This document shows positions 54,505 through 63,039 of a stretch of 64,000 nucleotides of DNA, piece after piece. The translations under genes and the position numbers were made by a program. Source of the stretch: Candidatus Buchananbacteria bacterium (GTDB lineage: Bacteria > Patescibacteriota > Patescibacteriia > CAIXNZ01); assembly GCA_014729025.1 (NCBI GenBank), contig WJKP01000045.1, positions 20,015-84,014 on the forward strand, written 5' to 3'. Under the pieces are notes generated by a model that did no database searches, was not told the origin of the DNA, and was given only the letters and a program-made list of their open reading frames with translations. Every line of letters starts with the position of its first letter. The stretch's first letter is position 1.

Positions 54505-56526
54505 TTATAATTCAATTATATCACCTTCTTTAACATTATTATTATTTTCCTCTGCTGAAGCCAGTAAATTAGCCGCTGGCAATTTTTCTTTTGTCGAGCC
54601 TTTTTCTGCTTTTTCTGCTTTTTCTTGAACTTGTTGTGAAGATTCTTTTTTCTCCGGAGCTAACACTTTTTCTTGTTCTACAGATTCTTTTTCTGCTTCA
54701 ACCGGTTGTGTTTTTTTAATTTCCTTTTGTATTTCTGGTCTTGAAATTTCTTGTTTGGTTGGCTGTACTGGCTTAGTTTCTTTTATTGTCTTTTGCTTGG
54801 CTAATCCTATGGGCTTATCTTCTTTAATTGGTTGGATTTTTTGAGGTTCAGACTGTTTTGCTGATTCCGATTTTTTTTCTTCAGGTGATTTACCTTTAAA
54901 ATCAACGGTTTTTTGCGAAATCTGTGATAAAGAAACAGCTTCTTGTTGTTGTTGCGTTTTTTCTTTACTCACTTCATCAGGTTTAACACCTATTTCTCCG
55001 CGGCGAGCTTTTTTAAGGCATTCTTTACAAAAAACTGGACGCACATTATCTGGCTTAAAAGGTACTTCAATTTCTTTTTTACAGCCAGAACAAACAGCTG
55101 GCCAGCCCTTATCTTTCTTTTTTTCATTTGATGTGGTTTCCGCCTCTCCTTGTTTTAATTTTTGCTCATTTGACTGTTGAGAAATCAGCTTACCTTTTCC
55201 TTCAACTTCCTTTTTGTCTTCAGTTATTACACCACTCCATCTTTTTATTTTATCTTCAACTACATTTTTGGGTTTAGCGTATCTTTCCCTGGAAACATTA
55301 ATAACTTTTTGTTCGTTACCCAAAGAATCACTATAAACCGGGGGTAACCCTCTAGCTGAAAATGGTTCAGAGGCTATCCCGTCAATCATTAATTTTAAAT
55401 AGATATGAAACTTTGGCAAAGCGACCAGATCTTCCTGAGTTAAATAAGGCATAAACTCTTTTTCTAAAAATTCAGCATCAGCTGCACCGACCCGAAAACA
55501 CATTAAAGTGCCGACATTACCAAAAACTGCCGGTCTAACTACCTCGCCTAATTGTTCTATATATTGATGAGCAATAATTAAATTCAAGCGATACTTACGA
55601 GCCTCTGATAAAATATCAGCAAAAGAATCGGTCGCAAAATTCTGAAATTCATCAACATATAAATAAAAATCTTTCCGATTATCTTCTGGAATATCAACCC
55701 GGCTCATAGCTGCCAACTGAATTTTTGTAACCATCATGGCACCAAGTAAAGCAGAAGCGTCTTCACCAATTCTCCCCTTGGAAAGATTTAGAATTAAAAT
55801 TTTATTTTCATCCATTACTTTTCTTAAATCAACTGCTGATTTAACCTGACCGACTACATTACGAATTAATGAAGTTGATAAAAACTGCCCCACCTTGTTT
55901 TGAATCGGTGAAACAACTTCTTGTAAAACTCTTTCATTCCATCTGGGAAATTCATCAACCCAAAAAGAACGAACTACCGGATCAGTAATTTTAGCTACTA
56001 CTTTTTTACGATATTCTTTATCAACCAACATACGGTTAATTCCCAATAAAGTACTATCTGGATATTCCAAAAGAGCCAAAATCGCATTTCTTAAAATATA
56101 TTCCAAACGAGGTCCCCAAGAATCAGCCCATAACTTTTTAAATACACCAATTAAACCAGAAGCAACCAAATGACGATGCTCAGAAGAAACTTTTTCCAAA
56201 ACATTAAATGAAATGGGATAATGCAAATCAGACGGATTAAAATAAATAACATCATTAATACGACTGCTTGGTATCCAGCTCAACATCTTTTCGGCAGTAT
56301 CACCATGAGGATCAACATAACAAACCCCTTTACCGGCAATAATATCCGAATAAACCATATTTTCAATCAAAGTTGTTTTCCCCATACCGGTTTTACCAAT
56401 AATATAAACGTGACGACGCCGATCATCTTCTTTAATCCCAAAAATCCGCTCTCTGTTTCTAAAAGTTGTTACAGCAAAAGGTGTGATTCCGCTTTCCACT
56501 GCTTTTTTAATTTGTTCTGTTACCAT
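54505..56526 (-). CDS. VirD4/TraG/TrwB-like type IV coupling-protein ATPase domain protein. It has no N-terminal TM, a C-terminal Zn ribbon and a K/E-rich tail.
   Basis: Walker A is HVYIIGKTGMGKTTL and Walker B is FYLYVDEFQNF. RKYRLNLIIAHQYIEQL and an all-alpha-domain-like AVFGNVGTLMCFRVGAADAEFLEKEF are present. The C-terminal zinc ribbon is CSGCKKEIEVPFKPDNVRPVFCKECLKK. Confidence 0.55.
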   Translation of the reverse strand: MVTEQIKKAVESGITPFAVTTFRNRERIFGIKEDDRRRHVYIIGKTGMGKTTLIENMVYSDIIAGKGVCYVDPHGDTAEKMLSWIPSSRINDVIYFNPSDLHYPISFNVLEKVSSEHRHLVASGLIGVFKKLWADSWGPRLEYILRNAILALLEYPDSTLLGINRMLVDKEYRKKVVAKITDPVVRSFWVDEFPRWNERVLQEVVSPIQNKVGQFLSTSLIRNVVGQVKSAVDLRKVMDENKILILNLSKGRIGEDASALLGAMMVTKIQLAAMSRVDIPEDNRKDFYLYVDEFQNFATDSFADILSEARKYRLNLIIAHQYIEQLGEVVRPAVFGNVGTLMCFRVGAADAEFLEKEFMPYLTQEDLVALPKFHIYLKLMIDGIASEPFSARGLPPVYSDSLGNEQKVINVSRERYAKPKNVVEDKIKRWSGVITEDKKEVEGKGKLISQQSNEQKLKQGEAETTSNEKKKDKGWPAVCSGCKKEIEVPFKPDNVRPVFCKECLKKARRGEIGVKPDEVSKEKTQQQQEAVSLSQISQKTVDFKGKSPEEKKSESAKQSEPQKIQPIKEDKPIGLAKQKTIKETKPVQPTKQEISRPEIQKEIKKTQPVEAEKESVEQEKVLAPEKKESSQQVQEKAEKAEKGSTKEKLPAANLLASAEENNNNVKEGDIIEL

Positions 56527-56538
56527 ATTTAAATAAAA

Positions 56539-58221
56539 TTAATCAATAAATGGAATATTACCAGGAATAGCTCCTGTCGATTTATCTGATTCAGAATCCT
56601 CTTTTTCTTCTTTTAGTTTTGTAGATTCTGTTTCTTTTTTGGTTTCCTTTGCTTTTTGGGGTTCAGCTTCTTGTTTTTTTATTTCTGCTAATTTTTCTTT
56701 TTCTTCTTTAGCTATTTCTGCCAATCTATCTTCTCTGACCGGCCGTGTCTTTTTAAATTTATCTTTATCTTTGGCAAATTGCATTTCAAAATCATCACTA
56801 TCATAATCAAAAGTCGGCTCAAATTGTTTTTCTTCTTCAGGTGTTTCTTGGTGAGCTTGTTCTGCCCTATCTTCAACCGGTTTTAATGGGGCTTCTTGAA
56901 CGGGTAACCCAACCGGCGCTGCTGCTTTGGTAAATTCTGTTTTCTTTAATAAAGGCGCTTTAACATACATACTTGGGAAATGCCACAAAGAAGCTAATTC
57001 TTCACTACATAATGGTTTAGCTGGTACACCAACAACTGTATCGCGGTTAATATAAGCTCGAATAAATTGATTTTTACGCCATTTTTTACGAGCTTGAATT
57101 AAAATATATTGAGGTGAATTAGTGCCAGTTTCTTTTAACATCGGCCTTAAACCATTAGTATTGACATCTGTCCATTGCTTTATAGAACCAATCATCGCAT
57201 TAACACCCAATGTTTTATTCATTTTATCTTTTTCTGCTACATAAAGATAACGTATCTTAGTATTAAAAGCCCATTTGGCTGTTTTTCTTTCAATACCATC
57301 AACTATTTCTTTTTGAGCTGAAGTTAAATTCATTATACTGGGCTGTTTTTCATCTACTTTAGCCTCTTCACCGCCCCCTAAATTCACCCCAGCTAATTGA
57401 TCTGTAAATTCATTTATAAAATCAGCTGGAAATTTAAACAGACTTCCAAAAAATCCTTGTTTTGGCTTTGATTTAATACCTATAACTTTATTTACCTCTT
57501 CTTTACCTTGTTTAATGCCCCAATCAACCGCCAAAGGAGTTAAAATATATTGAACCCAAATTTGCTCGCCTGGACCTATAGAACTCATTGTTTCTAATAA
57601 TGCTGCCATAGGATCAACAAAAGTTTCAGAAAAACGGTGCTCAAATTTTTGCCATGATTTTAAAGGAATCAACGGATTAGCTGAAAGTGTAAATTCTACA
57701 CCCCAAATATCATGTGTATCATTGGGATAATCTTTAGGAACAGAATTAACATAATCTTCAACCTCAGTAATTTCCGCATCAGGAAATTGAGAATAAACAG
57801 CCGCCTCAACCAAATTACGCCAATCACCTGGACAACGAATTAGAAACTGAATATTGCCTTCAATACTAACCAACTCAACTGATAATGAACGCATGAACTC
57901 ACCTTCAATATATGTCCCCCATTTAGTAAAAGTTGTATGAGCGCCTTGTAAGTGATCAAAAAAGTTTTCCATCGCCTGAATACTTTGCTCATTTCTTTTA
58001 GGGACATCTATAGCCAAAATTACCGGACCAGGCTGTTTACTAGCCCATTTTCCGCCAATATATAAACGATATTCAGGATATATTAAATAACGCAAAACAA
58101 TATAAACAAATAAAACCCAGAGCCAATACTTAAATAACAGGATATATAATATCCCAAAAGTTGATTGACCTTCAAACTGGGCTAAAAATTGATAAAAATA
58201 AGTTAAATCTATTTCAATCAT
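56539..58221 (-). CDS. hypothetical membrane-anchored protein, probable partner of the downstream coupling ATPase
   Basis: The N-terminal TM is ILYILLFKYWLWVLFVYIVL. A ~400-aa globular domain and a K/E-rich tail follow. Only 12 nt separate it from the ATPase gene. Confidence 0.45.
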   Translation of the reverse strand: MIEIDLTYFYQFLAQFEGQSTFGILYILLFKYWLWVLFVYIVLRYLIYPEYRLYIGGKWASKQPGPVILAIDVPKRNEQSIQAMENFFDHLQGAHTTFTKWGTYIEGEFMRSLSVELVSIEGNIQFLIRCPGDWRNLVEAAVYSQFPDAEITEVEDYVNSVPKDYPNDTHDIWGVEFTLSANPLIPLKSWQKFEHRFSETFVDPMAALLETMSSIGPGEQIWVQYILTPLAVDWGIKQGKEEVNKVIGIKSKPKQGFFGSLFKFPADFINEFTDQLAGVNLGGGEEAKVDEKQPSIMNLTSAQKEIVDGIERKTAKWAFNTKIRYLYVAEKDKMNKTLGVNAMIGSIKQWTDVNTNGLRPMLKETGTNSPQYILIQARKKWRKNQFIRAYINRDTVVGVPAKPLCSEELASLWHFPSMYVKAPLLKKTEFTKAAAPVGLPVQEAPLKPVEDRAEQAHQETPEEEKQFEPTFDYDSDDFEMQFAKDKDKFKKTRPVREDRLAEIAKEEKEKLAEIKKQEAEPQKAKETKKETESTKLKEEKEDSESDKSTGAIPGNIPFID

Positions 58222-58324
58222 AATTATTATATATTATACTAAATTTTAATTGTTTTTACTAGTTTAAAAATAACAAAAAACCTCTTTAGGAGGTTTTTTG
58301 TTAAATTGTGTATTTGATTTATTA

Positions 58325-59395
58325 TTATATTAATTCATAACGTCCATTTTCTAGTCTTTTAAACTTATCTTTGTTCATTAAGACCAAAGTAATGGTTGTT
58401 TTTTGCACTAACCGCTGTTTTAAAACTTCTTCAGCTAATTCTTTTTTGGACATCGGGCCATTATTCTTTAAGATGTTTTCAATAATATCAGCAACCGTAC
58501 CTTCTTGATAACCCCATTCACGTAAAGCATAAATACCACGGCCAACCAGTACATATTTATCATCTAAAATTAATTCGTTATGAACTGTTGCCGGATGAGC
58601 TTTTTTTCTATCAAAATTAGCCTGATTAATCAATTCAGCCAATTCTTCGAAATGTAACGGACGATTTTCTCTTAACATTACCAAATAAGCTTTATCAGTC
58701 ATTCTTTTGGGTTTAATAGTATTCCAGTGATAAACACCCCATTGACCTAAAATATTTCTATTTAAATCTTGTCTAATACTTAATAAAGCTTCTAAAATTG
58801 CCAAATCTTCGGCTTGTCTTTCTTTTATATAATCGTAATATTTATGTGATTGAAATTGAGACGATAAATCCTCTAAATGTAATGGCTTACCATGATTTTC
58901 AATTAATTCTTTCAAAGCCGAAGCAATAGCTACTGCCTGGTCCAAATCAACATCTTGCAAGGCAAAAACTACATGGTGATCATTTAAATCAACGACTCTT
59001 TTAATATTACCGGCAAAAATATTAGCCAAAATAAAATTCAAAGCTTTTTCTTCTACTTCAAGCTGTTCTTGTAATAATTTTTCCTGTAAATGCCATTCTG
59101 CCATAATACCGCCATGTGATTTTAAATAATCTAAAATAATAGATTCCAGATCACGAACCGGTAATTTGGCTCTATCATAATCCATATTTTTAATTTTTTT
59201 CAAACCTTCTCTTTCGATTTGTCGAACACGTTCACGCGTAATATTAAAATCCTTACCAATTTGCTCCAAAGTGTGTTTTGGATAATCTGCTAAGGCATTT
59301 CTTTTTTGCAAGACTTCTTGTTCTCTATCAGATAAATTAGCCAATAAGGCATTAACCAAGTCTGCATAACTAATTGTTTTTATTTTTGCTGTCAT
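58325..59395 (-). CDS. Sigma-70 region-4-like HTH protein with C-terminal HARE-HTH/winged-helix domains (no region 2)
   Basis: The N-terminus LSDREQEVLQKRNALADYPKHTLEQIGKDFNITRERVRQIEREGLKKIK matches sigma region 4.2. The C-terminal HARE-HTH signature is KAHPATVHNELILDDKYVLVGRGIYALREWGY, with a second HARE-like element KDKFKRLENGRYELI. Confidence 0.6.
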   Translation of the reverse strand: MTAKIKTISYADLVNALLANLSDREQEVLQKRNALADYPKHTLEQIGKDFNITRERVRQIEREGLKKIKNMDYDRAKLPVRDLESIILDYLKSHGGIMAEWHLQEKLLQEQLEVEEKALNFILANIFAGNIKRVVDLNDHHVVFALQDVDLDQAVAIASALKELIENHGKPLHLEDLSSQFQSHKYYDYIKERQAEDLAILEALLSIRQDLNRNILGQWGVYHWNTIKPKRMTDKAYLVMLRENRPLHFEELAELINQANFDRKKAHPATVHNELILDDKYVLVGRGIYALREWGYQEGTVADIIENILKNNGPMSKKELAEEVLKQRLVQKTTITLVLMNKDKFKRLENGRYELI

Positions 59396-59570
59396 ATTAT
59401 TTAAATTATAATAATTATTGTTTATATAAAAAATACAAAGTATAAGTTATTTACCTATCTTTAATCTATATCATAGTATAACATATATAAAAAAATATGT
59501 CAAGGTTTTGCTAATAATTGTATTATAACTTATAATTTACATTTTGGCAAGTCTCTTGTCTAATTAATGT

Positions 59571-59599
59571 ATATTAAAATATTTTATTAAAATTGTCAA
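59571..59599 (-). promoter_or_regulatory. Sigma-70-like promoter (TTGACA-N17-TAATAT) on the minus strand, upstream of the HTH gene
   Basis: On the minus strand, ttgaca is at 59594-59599 and taatat at 59571-59576. It lies immediately after the terminator at 59611-59685. Confidence 0.45.
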
Positions 59600-59610
59600 G
59601 AAATTTAAGT

Positions 59611-59960
59611 AAAAAAAATATTCCCGACCACTTTATCTCATTATTATTCGCTTTGGCCTGCGAACTAGAGATTTTCATCGGGAATGCTTAGAATTTTCTT
59701 TTTCTCATCTTGTTTTCCCCCTTTTAGGTTGAATTTGCCAAAAATTGTTAGCGGGGGAAAGATTTTACCCACGAGCTCGTTATAGCCCCCAAGTTCGGCC
59801 ATAACATCATTGGGCAATTCTTCCTGCCATTCGCCAAGCAGTCTATCCCTTTCTGCTTTGCAGGGCTTCTGTAACAATACTAAACGGTCTTAAAATTACA
59901 GGTCGCTTTAGTAGCTGTACGATGATTAAAGTCATCGGTAATTTTAACAGTTTGTCTTGT
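59611..59960 (-). ncRNA. Candidate structured RNA of unknown class. It is a ~45% GC island ending in an intrinsic terminator.
   Basis: The 180-nt core counts 81/180 G+C, against ~30% around it. The stems are tttccccc/gggggaaa (59714-59722/59751-59759) and attcccga/tcgggaat (59620-59627/59678-59685), followed by U9 on the minus strand. No RNase P, tmRNA or SRP consensus blocks were found by eye. Confidence 0.3.
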
Positions 59961-59970
59961 TTATTTAATT

Positions 59971-60990
59971 TTAGCTCTTTTTTAAGCGCCAGTCTAATTT
60001 TTGCCAAACAACCAATAATGGCGCAGCAATAAAAATTGAAGAATAAGCACCCAATAATATACCGGTAACCAAAACTAAAACAAAATCACTAATAGTTGTC
60101 CCGCCAAAGATTAAAATAGCCAGTAAAACCAATTCAGTAGTTAAAGAAGTATTAATTGAACGAGTAATTGTTTCGCGTACACTTTTATCAACAATTTCTT
60201 CAAATTCACCTTCATATTTATGCAAATTCTCCCTGATTCTGTCAAATACAACAATCGTATCATTAACCGAATAACCCAAAATAGTCAATAAAGCAGCTAC
60301 AAATGGCGTATTTACTTCCAAACCCAAATATTTGCCTAAAAATATAAAAATACCTAAAGTAATTAAAATATCATGAAATAAAGTAATAATTGCAATTATA
60401 CCATATTTCCAAGAACTGACCGGATACGAAACTTTACGAAAAGCCCAAGCAATATAAAAAACAATAGCAATCAAAACTAATAAAATTGCCCAAATTGACT
60501 TAGATTTTAATTCCTGTCCAATTGACGGCCCAATTGCTTCAAATCTTTGTTCAATTACTTTATCTTCAGATCCACTAACTGTAACTGCCTCGGCTTCTAA
60601 TTCCATTGTACTATTTTCAGCATCAGTAGTAATTTCAATATTTTCCTCACTTTCTTCAAGATCAGACTTTCTCTGCTCGTCCTTATCTTCTACATTATTT
60701 AATCTATTTAATATCTGCTGATGAGTTTCTTCACTTATTTCTTTAAATCTTAAAATATAACCATTTTCACCTGTTGGCTGTATATTTAATCCTTCTAAAT
60801 TTAAATCAGCCAATGATTGTTTTACTTGCTCAATATCTGGCCCTTGCTCTTTATATTTGACTTCCAATAAACTGCCACCTGTAAAATCAATGCCCAAATT
60901 CAAACCCCAGGCAATCCAAATCAAAATAGAGGTGAGTACGATCACACTCGAAATAGTAAAAAATATTTTTCTTTTATTAATAATCTTCAT
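59971..60990 (-). CDS. secF: Protein translocase subunit SecF (with an acidic insertion)
   Basis: GIDFTGGSLLEV and C-terminal TMs (YSVNDTIVVFDRIREN) are present. An acidic insert DKDEQRKSDLEESEENIEITTDAENSTMELEAEA is present. Confidence 0.85.
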   Translation of the reverse strand: MKIINKRKIFFTISSVIVLTSILIWIAWGLNLGIDFTGGSLLEVKYKEQGPDIEQVKQSLADLNLEGLNIQPTGENGYILRFKEISEETHQQILNRLNNVEDKDEQRKSDLEESEENIEITTDAENSTMELEAEAVTVSGSEDKVIEQRFEAIGPSIGQELKSKSIWAILLVLIAIVFYIAWAFRKVSYPVSSWKYGIIAIITLFHDILITLGIFIFLGKYLGLEVNTPFVAALLTILGYSVNDTIVVFDRIRENLHKYEGEFEEIVDKSVRETITRSINTSLTTELVLLAILIFGGTTISDFVLVLVTGILLGAYSSIFIAAPLLVVWQKLDWRLKKS

Positions 60991-60993
60991 ATT

Positions 60994-63039
60994 TTATTCA
61001 CTTTCTTGTGTCTTTTTATACAAAAATAACCAATTAATTTTATTAATAAAATTCCAGTTGATGACTGATTGTAAAACTGTCTTAGTTACAAACAATGCTG
61101 AAATCATAGAAATTAAAATACCAATCAATAAAGTTAAAGCAAAACCCTGAATAATACTTGTGCCAAACCAGTATAAAATAACACAAGTAATCAAAGTCGA
61201 GATATTACCGTCACGAATAGACGGCCAGGCGCGCTCAAATCCTTCGCTAAGCGCTGAACCTAGTGGTTTGCCTAACTTTAATTCTTCTTTCATTCTTTCA
61301 AAAATCAAAACATTAGCATCCACTGCCATACCAACTGATAAGATAAAACCAGCTATGCCAGCCAAAGTTAAAGTGACTGGAATTAATTTAAAAATAGCTA
61401 AAATCACTATCCCGTAAATACATAATGAAATAACCGAAATTAAACCGGGTAACCGATAATAAATTATCATAAACAAACCAACTAAAATCAAACCTAAAAT
61501 TGCGGCCTCTAAACTCTTAGTTAAAGATTCTTGCCCCAAACTGGCGCCAACGGTTTGCTGTGAAATAATATCAATTGGTACTGGCAAGGCACCGGCATTG
61601 AGGCGTCTGACTAAAGTTTTGGCCTCTTCTAAGGTAAATTTGCCAGTAATCACCGCTTTACCACCGCTAATTTTTTCATTGACCCTGGGTAAGCTAATAG
61701 GCTCACCATCAAGAAAAATACCAACGACCTGCCCGACATTACGAGCAGTTATTTCCTCAAAAAGTTGTTTTCCTTCATCATTAAACTGCAATTCAACGTT
61801 TGGTTCATTGGTATTAGGATTAAAACTAACCTGTGCGCCGTCTAATTGTTTACCGGAAAGTCCAGTATATTCAAACTGTTCCTGTGGCACAATATCTGAT
61901 TTTTTTTGTTTTTTAATTAAAACTCTGTAAACTTGAAAAGTTCTTTCTTGTTTTTCATCTACTTTATGAATCAAATGAAAACCAAATTGTGTTTCAACAA
62001 TATCAGAAATTTGACCATTTTCTAAATTAAACGCAACTTCTTCAAATTCAGGCACCATTTGTCCTTTACTAAAAAAGCCCAAATTACCACCACTAGTATC
62101 AGCGCCTGGTTCGGTTGAATTTTCTTTGGCTAATTCAGTAAAATTTTCAGGTGTAGCCTTTTCTTTTAATTCCTCAATCTTGCCTCTGGCATCTTCTTTG
62201 GAAATATCTTGTTCGCAACGAGTCGCGCCTTCATAACAGATTAAAATATGACTGGCTTGGACCTGTTTTTCTGTGCCGTTTTCACCACGTTTTAAAATAT
62301 TATAACCCTCACTATTTTCAAAAATCTGCCCATAAATATCACCTGGGGCAATTTGTTTAATTGGCGTTAAAAATTCGCTTTTAGGTCCGCTTTCACTAAT
62401 AAAACCTAAATCACCACCATCTTCTTTAGTTGCCAAATCTTCTGATTTTTCTTTGGCAATTTTCGAAAACTGATCAGGATTATTTTTAACTTCTTGTAAA
62501 ATTTCTTCAGCTTTTTGTTCTGCTTGTTGATTATATTCTTCTAATTGTTGCTGCTGGTCTTCGCTTAATTCAACTTCACTACTGGCTTGTTCTTTAAATT
62601 CCAATAAAGGTGTTTCACCGATCATTTTTATTGCTTCATTGACATCTTTAATGCCGGCTAATTCAACAATTACCCTATACTGTTTACCTACTTTAGTTGT
62701 CTGAACCAAGGGCTCGGACACGCCAAACGCATTAACTCTTCGTTCAATCACATCGCGAACACCTTCAACTGCATCGGCTTGATCTTTAGTCGGCACCTTA
62801 GAAACATCAGCATTATAAACCAAATGCGTGCCACCCTGTAAATCCAAGCCTAAAACAAACGATAAATCAGGATAATGAGGCAAATCAAATGGTAATTTAT
62901 TATTAGCCCAATCAACTGAATTATTCCAAATTTTGGGATAATCTAAAAAGCCTGCCAGAATTGCCACTAGCAAGATTAAAACTATATATAATCTAATTTT
63001 ATTGCGCTGACTAATTGTTACGCTTGATTTTCTTTTCAT
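60994..63039 (-). CDS. secD: Protein translocase subunit SecD carrying one canonical and one degenerate parvulin (PpiC-type PPIase) domain in the periplasmic head
   Basis: The N-terminus has GLDLQGGTHLVY and the TM core has VDANVLIFERMKEE. The inserted canonical parvulin is ASHILI...SGGNLGFFSKGQMVPEFEEVAF...TQFGFHLIHKV. A preceding degenerate copy is SEDLATKEDGGDLGFISESG...YNILKRGE. Confidence 0.85.
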   Translation of the reverse strand: MKRKSSVTISQRNKIRLYIVLILLVAILAGFLDYPKIWNNSVDWANNKLPFDLPHYPDLSFVLGLDLQGGTHLVYNADVSKVPTKDQADAVEGVRDVIERRVNAFGVSEPLVQTTKVGKQYRVIVELAGIKDVNEAIKMIGETPLLEFKEQASSEVELSEDQQQQLEEYNQQAEQKAEEILQEVKNNPDQFSKIAKEKSEDLATKEDGGDLGFISESGPKSEFLTPIKQIAPGDIYGQIFENSEGYNILKRGENGTEKQVQASHILICYEGATRCEQDISKEDARGKIEELKEKATPENFTELAKENSTEPGADTSGGNLGFFSKGQMVPEFEEVAFNLENGQISDIVETQFGFHLIHKVDEKQERTFQVYRVLIKKQKKSDIVPQEQFEYTGLSGKQLDGAQVSFNPNTNEPNVELQFNDEGKQLFEEITARNVGQVVGIFLDGEPISLPRVNEKISGGKAVITGKFTLEEAKTLVRRLNAGALPVPIDIISQQTVGASLGQESLTKSLEAAILGLILVGLFMIIYYRLPGLISVISLCIYGIVILAIFKLIPVTLTLAGIAGFILSVGMAVDANVLIFERMKEELKLGKPLGSALSEGFERAWPSIRDGNISTLITCVILYWFGTSIIQGFALTLLIGILISMISALFVTKTVLQSVINWNFINKINWLFLYKKTQESE

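Follow-up and report, generated by a model that had tools for sequence, protein, structure and literature searches.

A probable recently truncated small-protein gene and its conserved terminator between secF and a sigma-like HTH gene of Candidatus Buchananbacteria

The GC-rich segment between secF and a sigma-like HTH gene in a Candidatus Buchananbacteria MAG is quite probably the remnant of a recently truncated, lineage-restricted small-protein gene, together with a conserved terminator. The window, by which we mean the whole 64,000-nt stretch of DNA that was analysed, was taken from this MAG. In the reading that we favour, the slot between the two genes would ancestrally have held a small accessory cassette, and a deletion of ~167 nt and an insertion of 1 nt would have left behind 41 orphaned codons and the terminator module. 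The sequences compared are MAG or metagenome assemblies throughout, and the lesions described below were called from assemblies. The coordinates of the features are given in Table 1.

Table 1 Positions, in window coordinates, of the features of the segment and of the adjoining promoters
Feature	Coordinates	Strand	Remarks
Hairpin from the original secF terminator	59873..59961	-	Stem kept, 3′ U-run lost
Junction of the ~167-nt deletion	59883..59884	-	Accurate to a few nt
Remnant of the small-protein gene	59755..59877	-	41 codons homologous to residues ~40-80 of the ~80-aa ORF
Mechanical 70-aa TTG ORF	59665..59877	-	Remnant plus read-through extension; no SD before TTG
tttccccc...gggggaaa inverted repeat	59714..59760	-	Window-specific helix; 3′ arm is the SD of the mini-ORF
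Conserved 3′ module	59610..59744	-	TGGCAA box, SD, mini-ORF, long hairpin, U-run
Six-codon mini-ORF	59688..59708	-	ATG AGA AAA AGA AAA TTC TAA (MRKRKF and stop)
Long three-helix hairpin, terminator stem	59620..59685	-	66 nt
U8 run of the terminator	59611..59618	-	U6-U8 kept in all five versions
Three tandem sigma70-type promoters	59475-59599	-	Drive the downstream Sigma70_r4/HARE-HTH gene; context, outside the element

Results

The preliminary description had placed a segment of ~350 nt 3′ of secF on the minus strand, and it is present at 59611-59960, between the stop codon of secF (59971-60990, minus strand; profile match to SecD_SecF_C, E 1.8e-57) and the Sigma70_r4/HARE-HTH gene that lies downstream of it (58325-59395, minus strand). 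The consensus promoter that had been noted right after the terminator corresponds to TTGACA-N17-TAATAT at 59599-59571 (minus), the first promoter of the HTH gene, and is joined by two better matches at 59550-59522 and 59503-59475 (TTGCCA-17-TATAAT; TTGACA-17-TATACT with TG). Relatives share these tandem promoters almost to the base, whether or not they carry the cassette. An exact look-up of the SecF product and of the TTG-ORF product of the window found neither on record. Loci for comparison were gathered via SecF, via the HTH protein and via a match to the small protein, which together yielded many syntenic secD-secF-HTH loci.

Several properties of the neighboring genes were recorded alongside. 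In SecD (60994-63039, minus), an inserted PPIase domain of the parvulin type (Rotamase_3/Rotamase, aa 254-362, E 2e-40) separates the SecD_1st domain from the P1-head domain, and the same architecture was recorded for the relatives L029, L030, L031, and L034. At 58271-58303, a perfect 14-15-bp palindromic hairpin with A-runs and T-runs on its flanks is a bidirectional terminator that separates the HTH gene from its neighbor at 56539-58221. The region 3′ of the HTH gene (54505-58221, minus) encodes a 560-aa protein without a Pfam match (DUF8128 in relatives) and a coupling-protein ATPase of the TrwB/TraG-like type whose C-terminus carries a treble-clef zinc finger, and the order HTH gene, 560-aa protein, TrwB/TraG-like ATPase is kept in every relative examined.

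The composition of the segment had been described as a core of ~45% GC against flanks of ~30%, and the measured values agree: the 180-nt core has 44.4% GC against a window mean of 31.6%, placing it in the top 1.4% of 180-nt windows, while the full 350 nt has 39.7% (top 4.8%) and the 150-nt windows of the segment reach up to 0.43-0.47. About 27 other stretches of the 64-kb window also have a GC of at least 0.44, for example 61501-61750 within secD. Intergenic DNA here lies at 0.15-0.25, and 0.44-0.45 is typical for coding stretches. The GC of the segment is exceptional for intergenic DNA only; as coding sequence it is ordinary, and in the reading that we favour it is coding-like because it includes the 41 orphaned codons of a former gene. 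Both of the inverted repeats noted earlier were located, tttccccc/gggggaaa at 59753-59760 and 59714-59721 and attcccga/tcgggaat at 59620-59627 and 59678-59685. The closing hairpin and U-run on the minus strand are also there, with the correction that the run consists of an A and then U8, not U9. The TTG ORF lacks an SD and a domain, as had been stated, with no Pfam or PHROG match; it is not the sole ORF of the segment, as a second TTG ORF of 54 aa (59843-60007) overlaps the end of secF.

The first interpretation to be weighed takes all ~350 nt as a structured ncRNA gene in its own right, whether a new sRNA or a housekeeping RNA that has diverged, as the preliminary description had proposed. 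This is supported by the raised GC within an AT-rich genome, by the presence of its own terminator and by a minus-strand fold that is more stable than shuffles (z -3.98). However, the plus strand too has a more stable fold than its shuffles (z -2.83), since symmetric terminator hairpins fold on both strands. Rfam 15 gave 0 matches at the gathering threshold over the whole window and only noise at E<=10 on 59300-60100 (P31 at 15.4 bits with a gathering threshold of 40, SAM-II at 14.8 bits with a gathering threshold of 44), while ARAGORN found 0 tRNA and 0 tmRNA over the window. The cassettes of three relatives (L003, L031, and L034) gave no Rfam match at E<=1, such that relaxed thresholds produced no relevant match in the window or in its intact relatives.

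The comparison with relatives gave a divided answer on RNA conservation. The terminal hairpin carries compensatory changes, whereas the 5′ and central two-thirds are not conserved as RNA: they differ by large indels among close relatives and are missing from many of them. Conservation and covariation over the full length, as would be expected of a structured ncRNA in general, were not found, with conservation lying in the 3′ ~135 nt only, and the central part has instead a codon-level conservation pattern. Protein-level conservation of the TTG ORF with synonymous drift had been named beforehand as an outcome that would speak against an RNA gene, and it was observed (dN/dS 0.15-0.34, see below). 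The segment also has no upstream promoter, as the cassette promoter is deleted in the window, and one of the two helices that had been singled out is specific to the window, the tttccccc/gggggaaa helix not being predicted in the folds of L001, L031, and L003. Taken together, these results make an independent RNA gene extremely unlikely. Given the perfect 8-bp match of the tttccccc/gggggaaa repeat in the window, a helix that sequesters the SD of the mini-ORF, with the last codons of the small ORF as anti-SD, was also considered and was rejected as a conserved feature, as the other versions do not fold in this way.

Five independent syntenic versions of a cassette were found in Patescibacteria at this position: those of the window, L001, L031, L003, and L034. 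Identical copies were treated together (L031 = L032 = L033; L003 = L025 = L026; L034 = L035), and the hosts are some Buchananbacteria/Falkowbacteria-like Patescibacteria. Reading from secF, the cassette consists of the secF terminator, a promoter (TTGACA-N17-TATAAT-like), the SD AAAGGAGGTG, an ORF of ~80 aa, a spacer of ~40 nt, a second SD AAAGGAGGAAAA, a six-codon mini-ORF, 2 nt and a 66-nt hairpin with a U-run, directly 3′ of which lie the promoters of the HTH gene. The full cassette, with a TTGACA-N17-TATxxT promoter, the AAAGGAGGTG SD and an intact ORF, is held by L003 and L034. In most relatives, the secF-HTH spacer is 210-330 nt long and contains a single plain terminator hairpin besides the tandem promoters already described, and the cassette is missing in relatives whose HTH protein is 87, 81, 75, and 72% identical to that of the window.

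The distribution is patchy, with the cassette missing in L027-L030, L002, and L004 (HTH protein 87-72% identical) and intact in L003 and L034 (70-72%), which implies that the cassette was lost several times independently or else was transferred long ago. L036, which comes next to L003 among the relatives, is uninformative, as its contig breaks off in Illumina adapter sequence 352 nt ahead of the HTH gene. Positions 1-70 of this ENA contig (NODE_3402) begin with an Illumina Nextera adapter (AATGATACGGCGACCACCGAGATCTACAC...CTGTCTCTTATACACATCT-type), a contamination of the public assembly. A scan with a DNA pattern for the hairpin core returned 0 matches among viral contigs and, among metagenome contigs, L025 and L026 only, both identical to L003; this pattern is too strict for L034, which has one A fewer, and L031 was not returned from that collection.

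The small ORF is intact, at 80 aa, in L003 (4165-4407) and L034 (1919-2161), in each case with a start codon, an SD and a promoter. On a protein-guided codon alignment, its dN/dS is 0.20 between L003 and L034, 0.22 between L003 and L031, and 0.34 between L034 and L031, and the window remnant compared with L031 gives 0.15 over 40 shared codons (binomial p 6e-4 against neutrality). Neutrality is rejected for the small ORF at p 4e-5 to 3e-3, the flanking genes having a dN/dS of 0.06-0.23, and the N-terminal half of the protein is the better conserved one (N-half dN/dS 0.15). This pattern of substitution indicates that the small ORF is a real protein gene under purifying selection. The value of 0.15 between the remnant and L031 further suggests that most of their divergence arose under protein-level constraint, and either the lesions are recent or there may be residual expression.

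The protein encoded by this gene has few recorded relatives. An exhaustive HMMER search of 1.84 billion cluster representatives (50% identity) recovered the L003 and L031 clusters only, apart from three weak matches to multi-repeat eukaryote-like proteins (ankyrin-like and similar), which were judged spurious. A word-indexed protein search with the L003 ORF found only itself, and searches of Pfam and PHROGs with the small protein gave nothing significant. The AlphaFold2 model of the protein is all-helical, with five helices and a pLDDT of 70, and Foldseek against the PDB returned a best E of 1.5 for it, giving no fold assignment. These searches and the model indicate that the ~80-aa helical protein is an unannotated orphan family restricted to this clade. 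Residues 9-34 of the L003 protein (P0001, L003 4165-4404), LLQKAGFEVKVRSNTEQ, weakly resemble ankyrin-repeat units (LLLKAGADVKVQNETGDTPL), with 8 stretches of a 1429-aa protein (P0124) matched at E 3.7e-5; the likeness, to half a repeat, is probably due to chance.

In the window, the copy of this gene is homologous to P0001 (tblastn 37% identity, E 4.8e-5; pairwise blastp E 1e-8) and is disabled by lesions. The first lesion is the deletion, corresponding to columns 103-269 of alignment A3: L031 and L003 have sequence there, the window has none, and L034 shows the full layout. With these ~167 nt went the U-run that closed the secF terminator, the promoter and SD of the cassette, the ATG, and ~45 codons at the N-terminal end. 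The loss of the U-run can be seen at the first hairpin after secF (A3 columns 14-102; -19 kcal/mol, z -2.5), the stem of which is followed by no U-run in the window alone; L001, L031, and L003 have a hairpin with U6-7 at the same place after secF. The second lesion is a 1-nt insertion (A5 column 16) that takes the ancestral stop (TAA, 59748-59750) out of the reading frame, and the 70-aa TTG ORF exists in the window because of it. The extended frame crosses the second SD and the mini-ORF and stops at a TAG inside the hairpin; in the homologous frame, L001, L031, and L003 have in-frame stops at the position of the ancestral stop.

Different lesions are found in L001 and L031, the two cassette-bearing loci closest to the window. 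In L001, there are two deletions unlike that of the window, one covering the start region and the other removing ~70 nt in the middle of the gene with a frameshift. In L031 (3851-3853, also L032 and L033, in three JGI samples), a TGA stands at a Trp codon that is conserved in the window, L003, and L034. The L031 frame stays open past this TGA; a recently acquired nonsense codon and a leaky UGA decoded as Trp are both conceivable. Since the window, L001, and L031 carry different lesions, the comparison of these loci indicates that the small gene has been lost repeatedly, in line with most relatives lacking it altogether.

The frame that remains in the window might in principle still be translated from the TTG (59665-59877) into a truncated but functional C-terminal fragment, a reading with which the 70 open codons and the dN/dS of 0.15 against L031 over the 40 shared codons agree. 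Against it, the TTG has no SD and the only source of transcription is read-through from secF, the better-conserved N-terminal half is missing, the last 29 codons lie in a frame that is interrupted by stops in L001, L031, and L003, and the other disabling lesions in sister lineages argue that the gene is dispensable in the clade. We therefore consider a functional fragment highly unlikely. It is scarcely credible that the truncation arose in assembly or binning and that the organism carries an intact cassette, even though the data come entirely from MAGs: a clean internal deletion of 167 nt in a well-assembled 89-kb contig would be an atypical assembly error, and L001 and L031, from other studies, carry independent lesions of the same gene, that of L031 being identical in three samples.

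3′ of the small gene, the cassette contains the mini-ORF, which is preceded in the window by a strong SD (GGGGG, 59717-59721) and ends 2 nt ahead of the hairpin. The mini-ORF is found in 5/5 versions, as MRKRKF, MRQRKF, MKKRKF, or MRKKKF, that is, M[RK][KQ][RK]KF and a stop, with an SD-ATG spacing of 6-8 nt and the stop always 2 nt before the stem (5/5). The SD and mini-ORF lie at 59688-59721 (minus) in the window and at approximately 1801-1835 in L001, 3957-3992 in L031, 4435-4469 in L003, and 2181-2215 in L034. All five copies also have an invariant TGGCAA box, ~12 nt 5′ of the SD, and the arrangement of SD and mini-ORF with a strong hairpin occurs a single time in the 64-kb window. The hairpin itself, with 19 pairs, has 98.9% of cells paired over the 5 sequences, compared with 32-54% in slid-register controls, and two of its pairs show double compensatory changes (CUC/GAG, CCU/AGG, CCC/GGG). 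The hairpin and U-run with which the segment had been said to end are thus a real conserved RNA structure.

The degree of constraint was judged against identity at four-fold sites as the neutral benchmark, which is 57-73% between the window and L001 and 46-49% between the window and L003. The 5′ hairpin region is 83% identical between the window and L001 and is not alignable between the window and L003. In the central part, the window and L001 are 45% identical with indels over the first half and 72% over the second, which indicates evolution at about the neutral rate, the first half lying at or below the four-fold level. The 3′ module (59605-59745) is ~85% identical in every pairing of window, L001, and L003 (85-90% for the 3′ ~135 nt taken together with the hairpin), even in lineages in which the ORF is broken, and the hairpin proper reaches 89.7%, loops included, between the window and L003. 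The synonymous sites of the adjacent small ORF are saturated (pS 0.64-0.87), so recent transfer does not explain the conservation of the module. These identities point to constraint on the 3′ module at the nucleotide level. A covariance model of the module (R1), run over the window and 31 loci (249 kb), scored only the five copies, at 141-161 bits, and neither this search nor the pattern scans of viral and metagenome contigs found copies in other contexts; the module is therefore not a repeat or mobile element.

This conservation allows a further reading, compatible with the pseudogene account of the rest of the segment, in which the 3′ module is a translation-sensing attenuator or the source of a 3′UTR-derived sRNA. 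As an attenuator, a ribosome loaded at the strong SD would translate the mini-ORF, stop 2 nt before the stem and cover the 5′ arm of the hairpin; termination would then be suppressed, and transcription of the cassette or of secDF would read into the sigma-like HTH gene. Ribosome footprints are such that a ribosome terminating at the stop of the mini-ORF would cover the 5′ arm of the stem. The layout of SD, ATG, six codons and stop 2 nt before the stem is invariant (5/5), the SD-ATG spacer varies over 6-8 nt as expected for a working RBS, the window-L003 identity of the hairpin, loops included (89.7%), exceeds the 46-49% at four-fold sites, the module is still constrained (85%) where the ORF is broken, and the arrangement is unique in the 64-kb window. 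It also appears, by analogy, to resemble the ampC attenuator of E. coli, in which a terminator is joined to an RBS and a start-stop. However, no conserved alternative antiterminator helix was found in four folds, and transcription of the HTH gene can start at three conserved promoters past the terminator, such that read-through is not required. Nor is the module placed in a 5′ leader, since it precedes the HTH promoters, and relatives without the cassette use a plain terminator. With n=5 sequences, constraint on the mini-ORF peptide and constraint on the nucleotides are inseparable. On balance, we regard the attenuator or sRNA reading as possible but unlikely.

Discussion

The evidence is best accounted for by gene truncation at a site where the neighboring operon would have been left with the terminator of the lost gene. 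In this account, secDF transcripts would run through the ~250-nt remnant as a long 3′UTR and would end at the cassette hairpin and U8 (59611-59685), 12 nt upstream of the first HTH promoter. The remnant would have no function of its own, and the terminator module would be selected as the secDF terminator, placed shortly before the next gene's promoters. Judged from the lost U-run and the retained hairpin, the cassette hairpin probably now ends the secDF transcript, and the segment is probably a de facto long secDF 3′UTR made of a dead gene. A long secDF 3′UTR had been among the possibilities named in the preliminary description, and it is likely what the segment now is, secF's own terminator having lost its U-run; what does not hold is that it is a structured element under selection as such.

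A GC-rich, hairpin-rich intergenic patch in an AT-rich genome is a classic signal of ncRNA. Here, the signal would be a false lead, produced by a dying protein gene between two terminators. The locus would also capture a stage in the loss of a gene from a reduced Patescibacteria genome, with the gene intact in two lineages, interrupted by a nonsense codon in one, carrying different internal deletions in two, and absent in the remaining relatives, and it would show how a neighboring operon takes over the terminator of a dead gene. Two by-products of the analysis are the unannotated ~80-aa helical protein family and an SD/mini-ORF/terminator module that seems constrained beyond the needs of termination.

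This second by-product deserves a separate comment. The loops, bulges and SD/mini-ORF of the module are conserved beyond what a plain terminator would need, and a description of it as a terminator only may understate it. We think it improbable, although the conserved layout is consistent with it, that the ~135-nt 3′ module is a previously undescribed Patescibacteria regulatory RNA device in which translation or ribosome availability is coupled to termination. If it were, the device would tune how much transcription from secDF or the cassette reads on into the sigma-like factor gene, or would release a 3′UTR-derived sRNA, and in the window it would have survived as a functional module after the death of its companion small gene.

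Comparison with known systems

Among known systems, the housekeeping and other large structured RNAs in Rfam (RNase P RNA, tmRNA, SRP RNA, and 6S RNA) resemble the segment in size range and local GC enrichment, but the segment has no covariance-model match and is not conserved as RNA outside the terminator.

The module shares with the ampC attenuator and the pyrBI leader an RBS with a very short ORF that ends at the foot of a terminator hairpin, and with the ampC attenuator also the position of a terminator that closes an upstream operon just upstream of another gene. PMC13228080, citing Grundstrom & Jaurin (1982), states that the ampC attenuator of E. coli doubles as the frd operon terminator. 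Unlike these systems, the module has no conserved antiterminator and no regulatory codons, and the HTH gene has three promoters past the terminator; the likeness to the ampC and pyrBI attenuators is one of layout only.

By sequence, the module has the layout of an intrinsic (Rho-independent) terminator, with a stable, G+C-containing stem-loop kept by compensation, U8 directly after it, and a position ahead of the promoters of the next gene. It differs from such terminators in that its hairpin is unusually long (66 nt, three helices), its internal loops and apical region are near-invariant despite saturated synonymous sites, and an SD-driven six-codon ORF is fixed 2 nt ahead of it.

The remainder of the segment compares most closely with a unitary pseudogene. 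The window copy combines homology to a functional gene with disabling lesions, and what marks an intact gene has gone from it (the promoter, SD, ATG, and ~45 codons), leaving a TTG without an SD. As in unitary pseudogenes, the homologue is intact and under purifying selection in relatives, the promoter, SD, start, and N-terminal half have been lost, and sister lineages show independent lesions or complete loss. Compared with a typical unitary pseudogene, the parent here is an unannotated orphan, with two 50%-identity clusters among 1.84 billion, no Pfam or PHROG family and no fold match, and the low dN/dS against L031 implies that inactivation was very recent.
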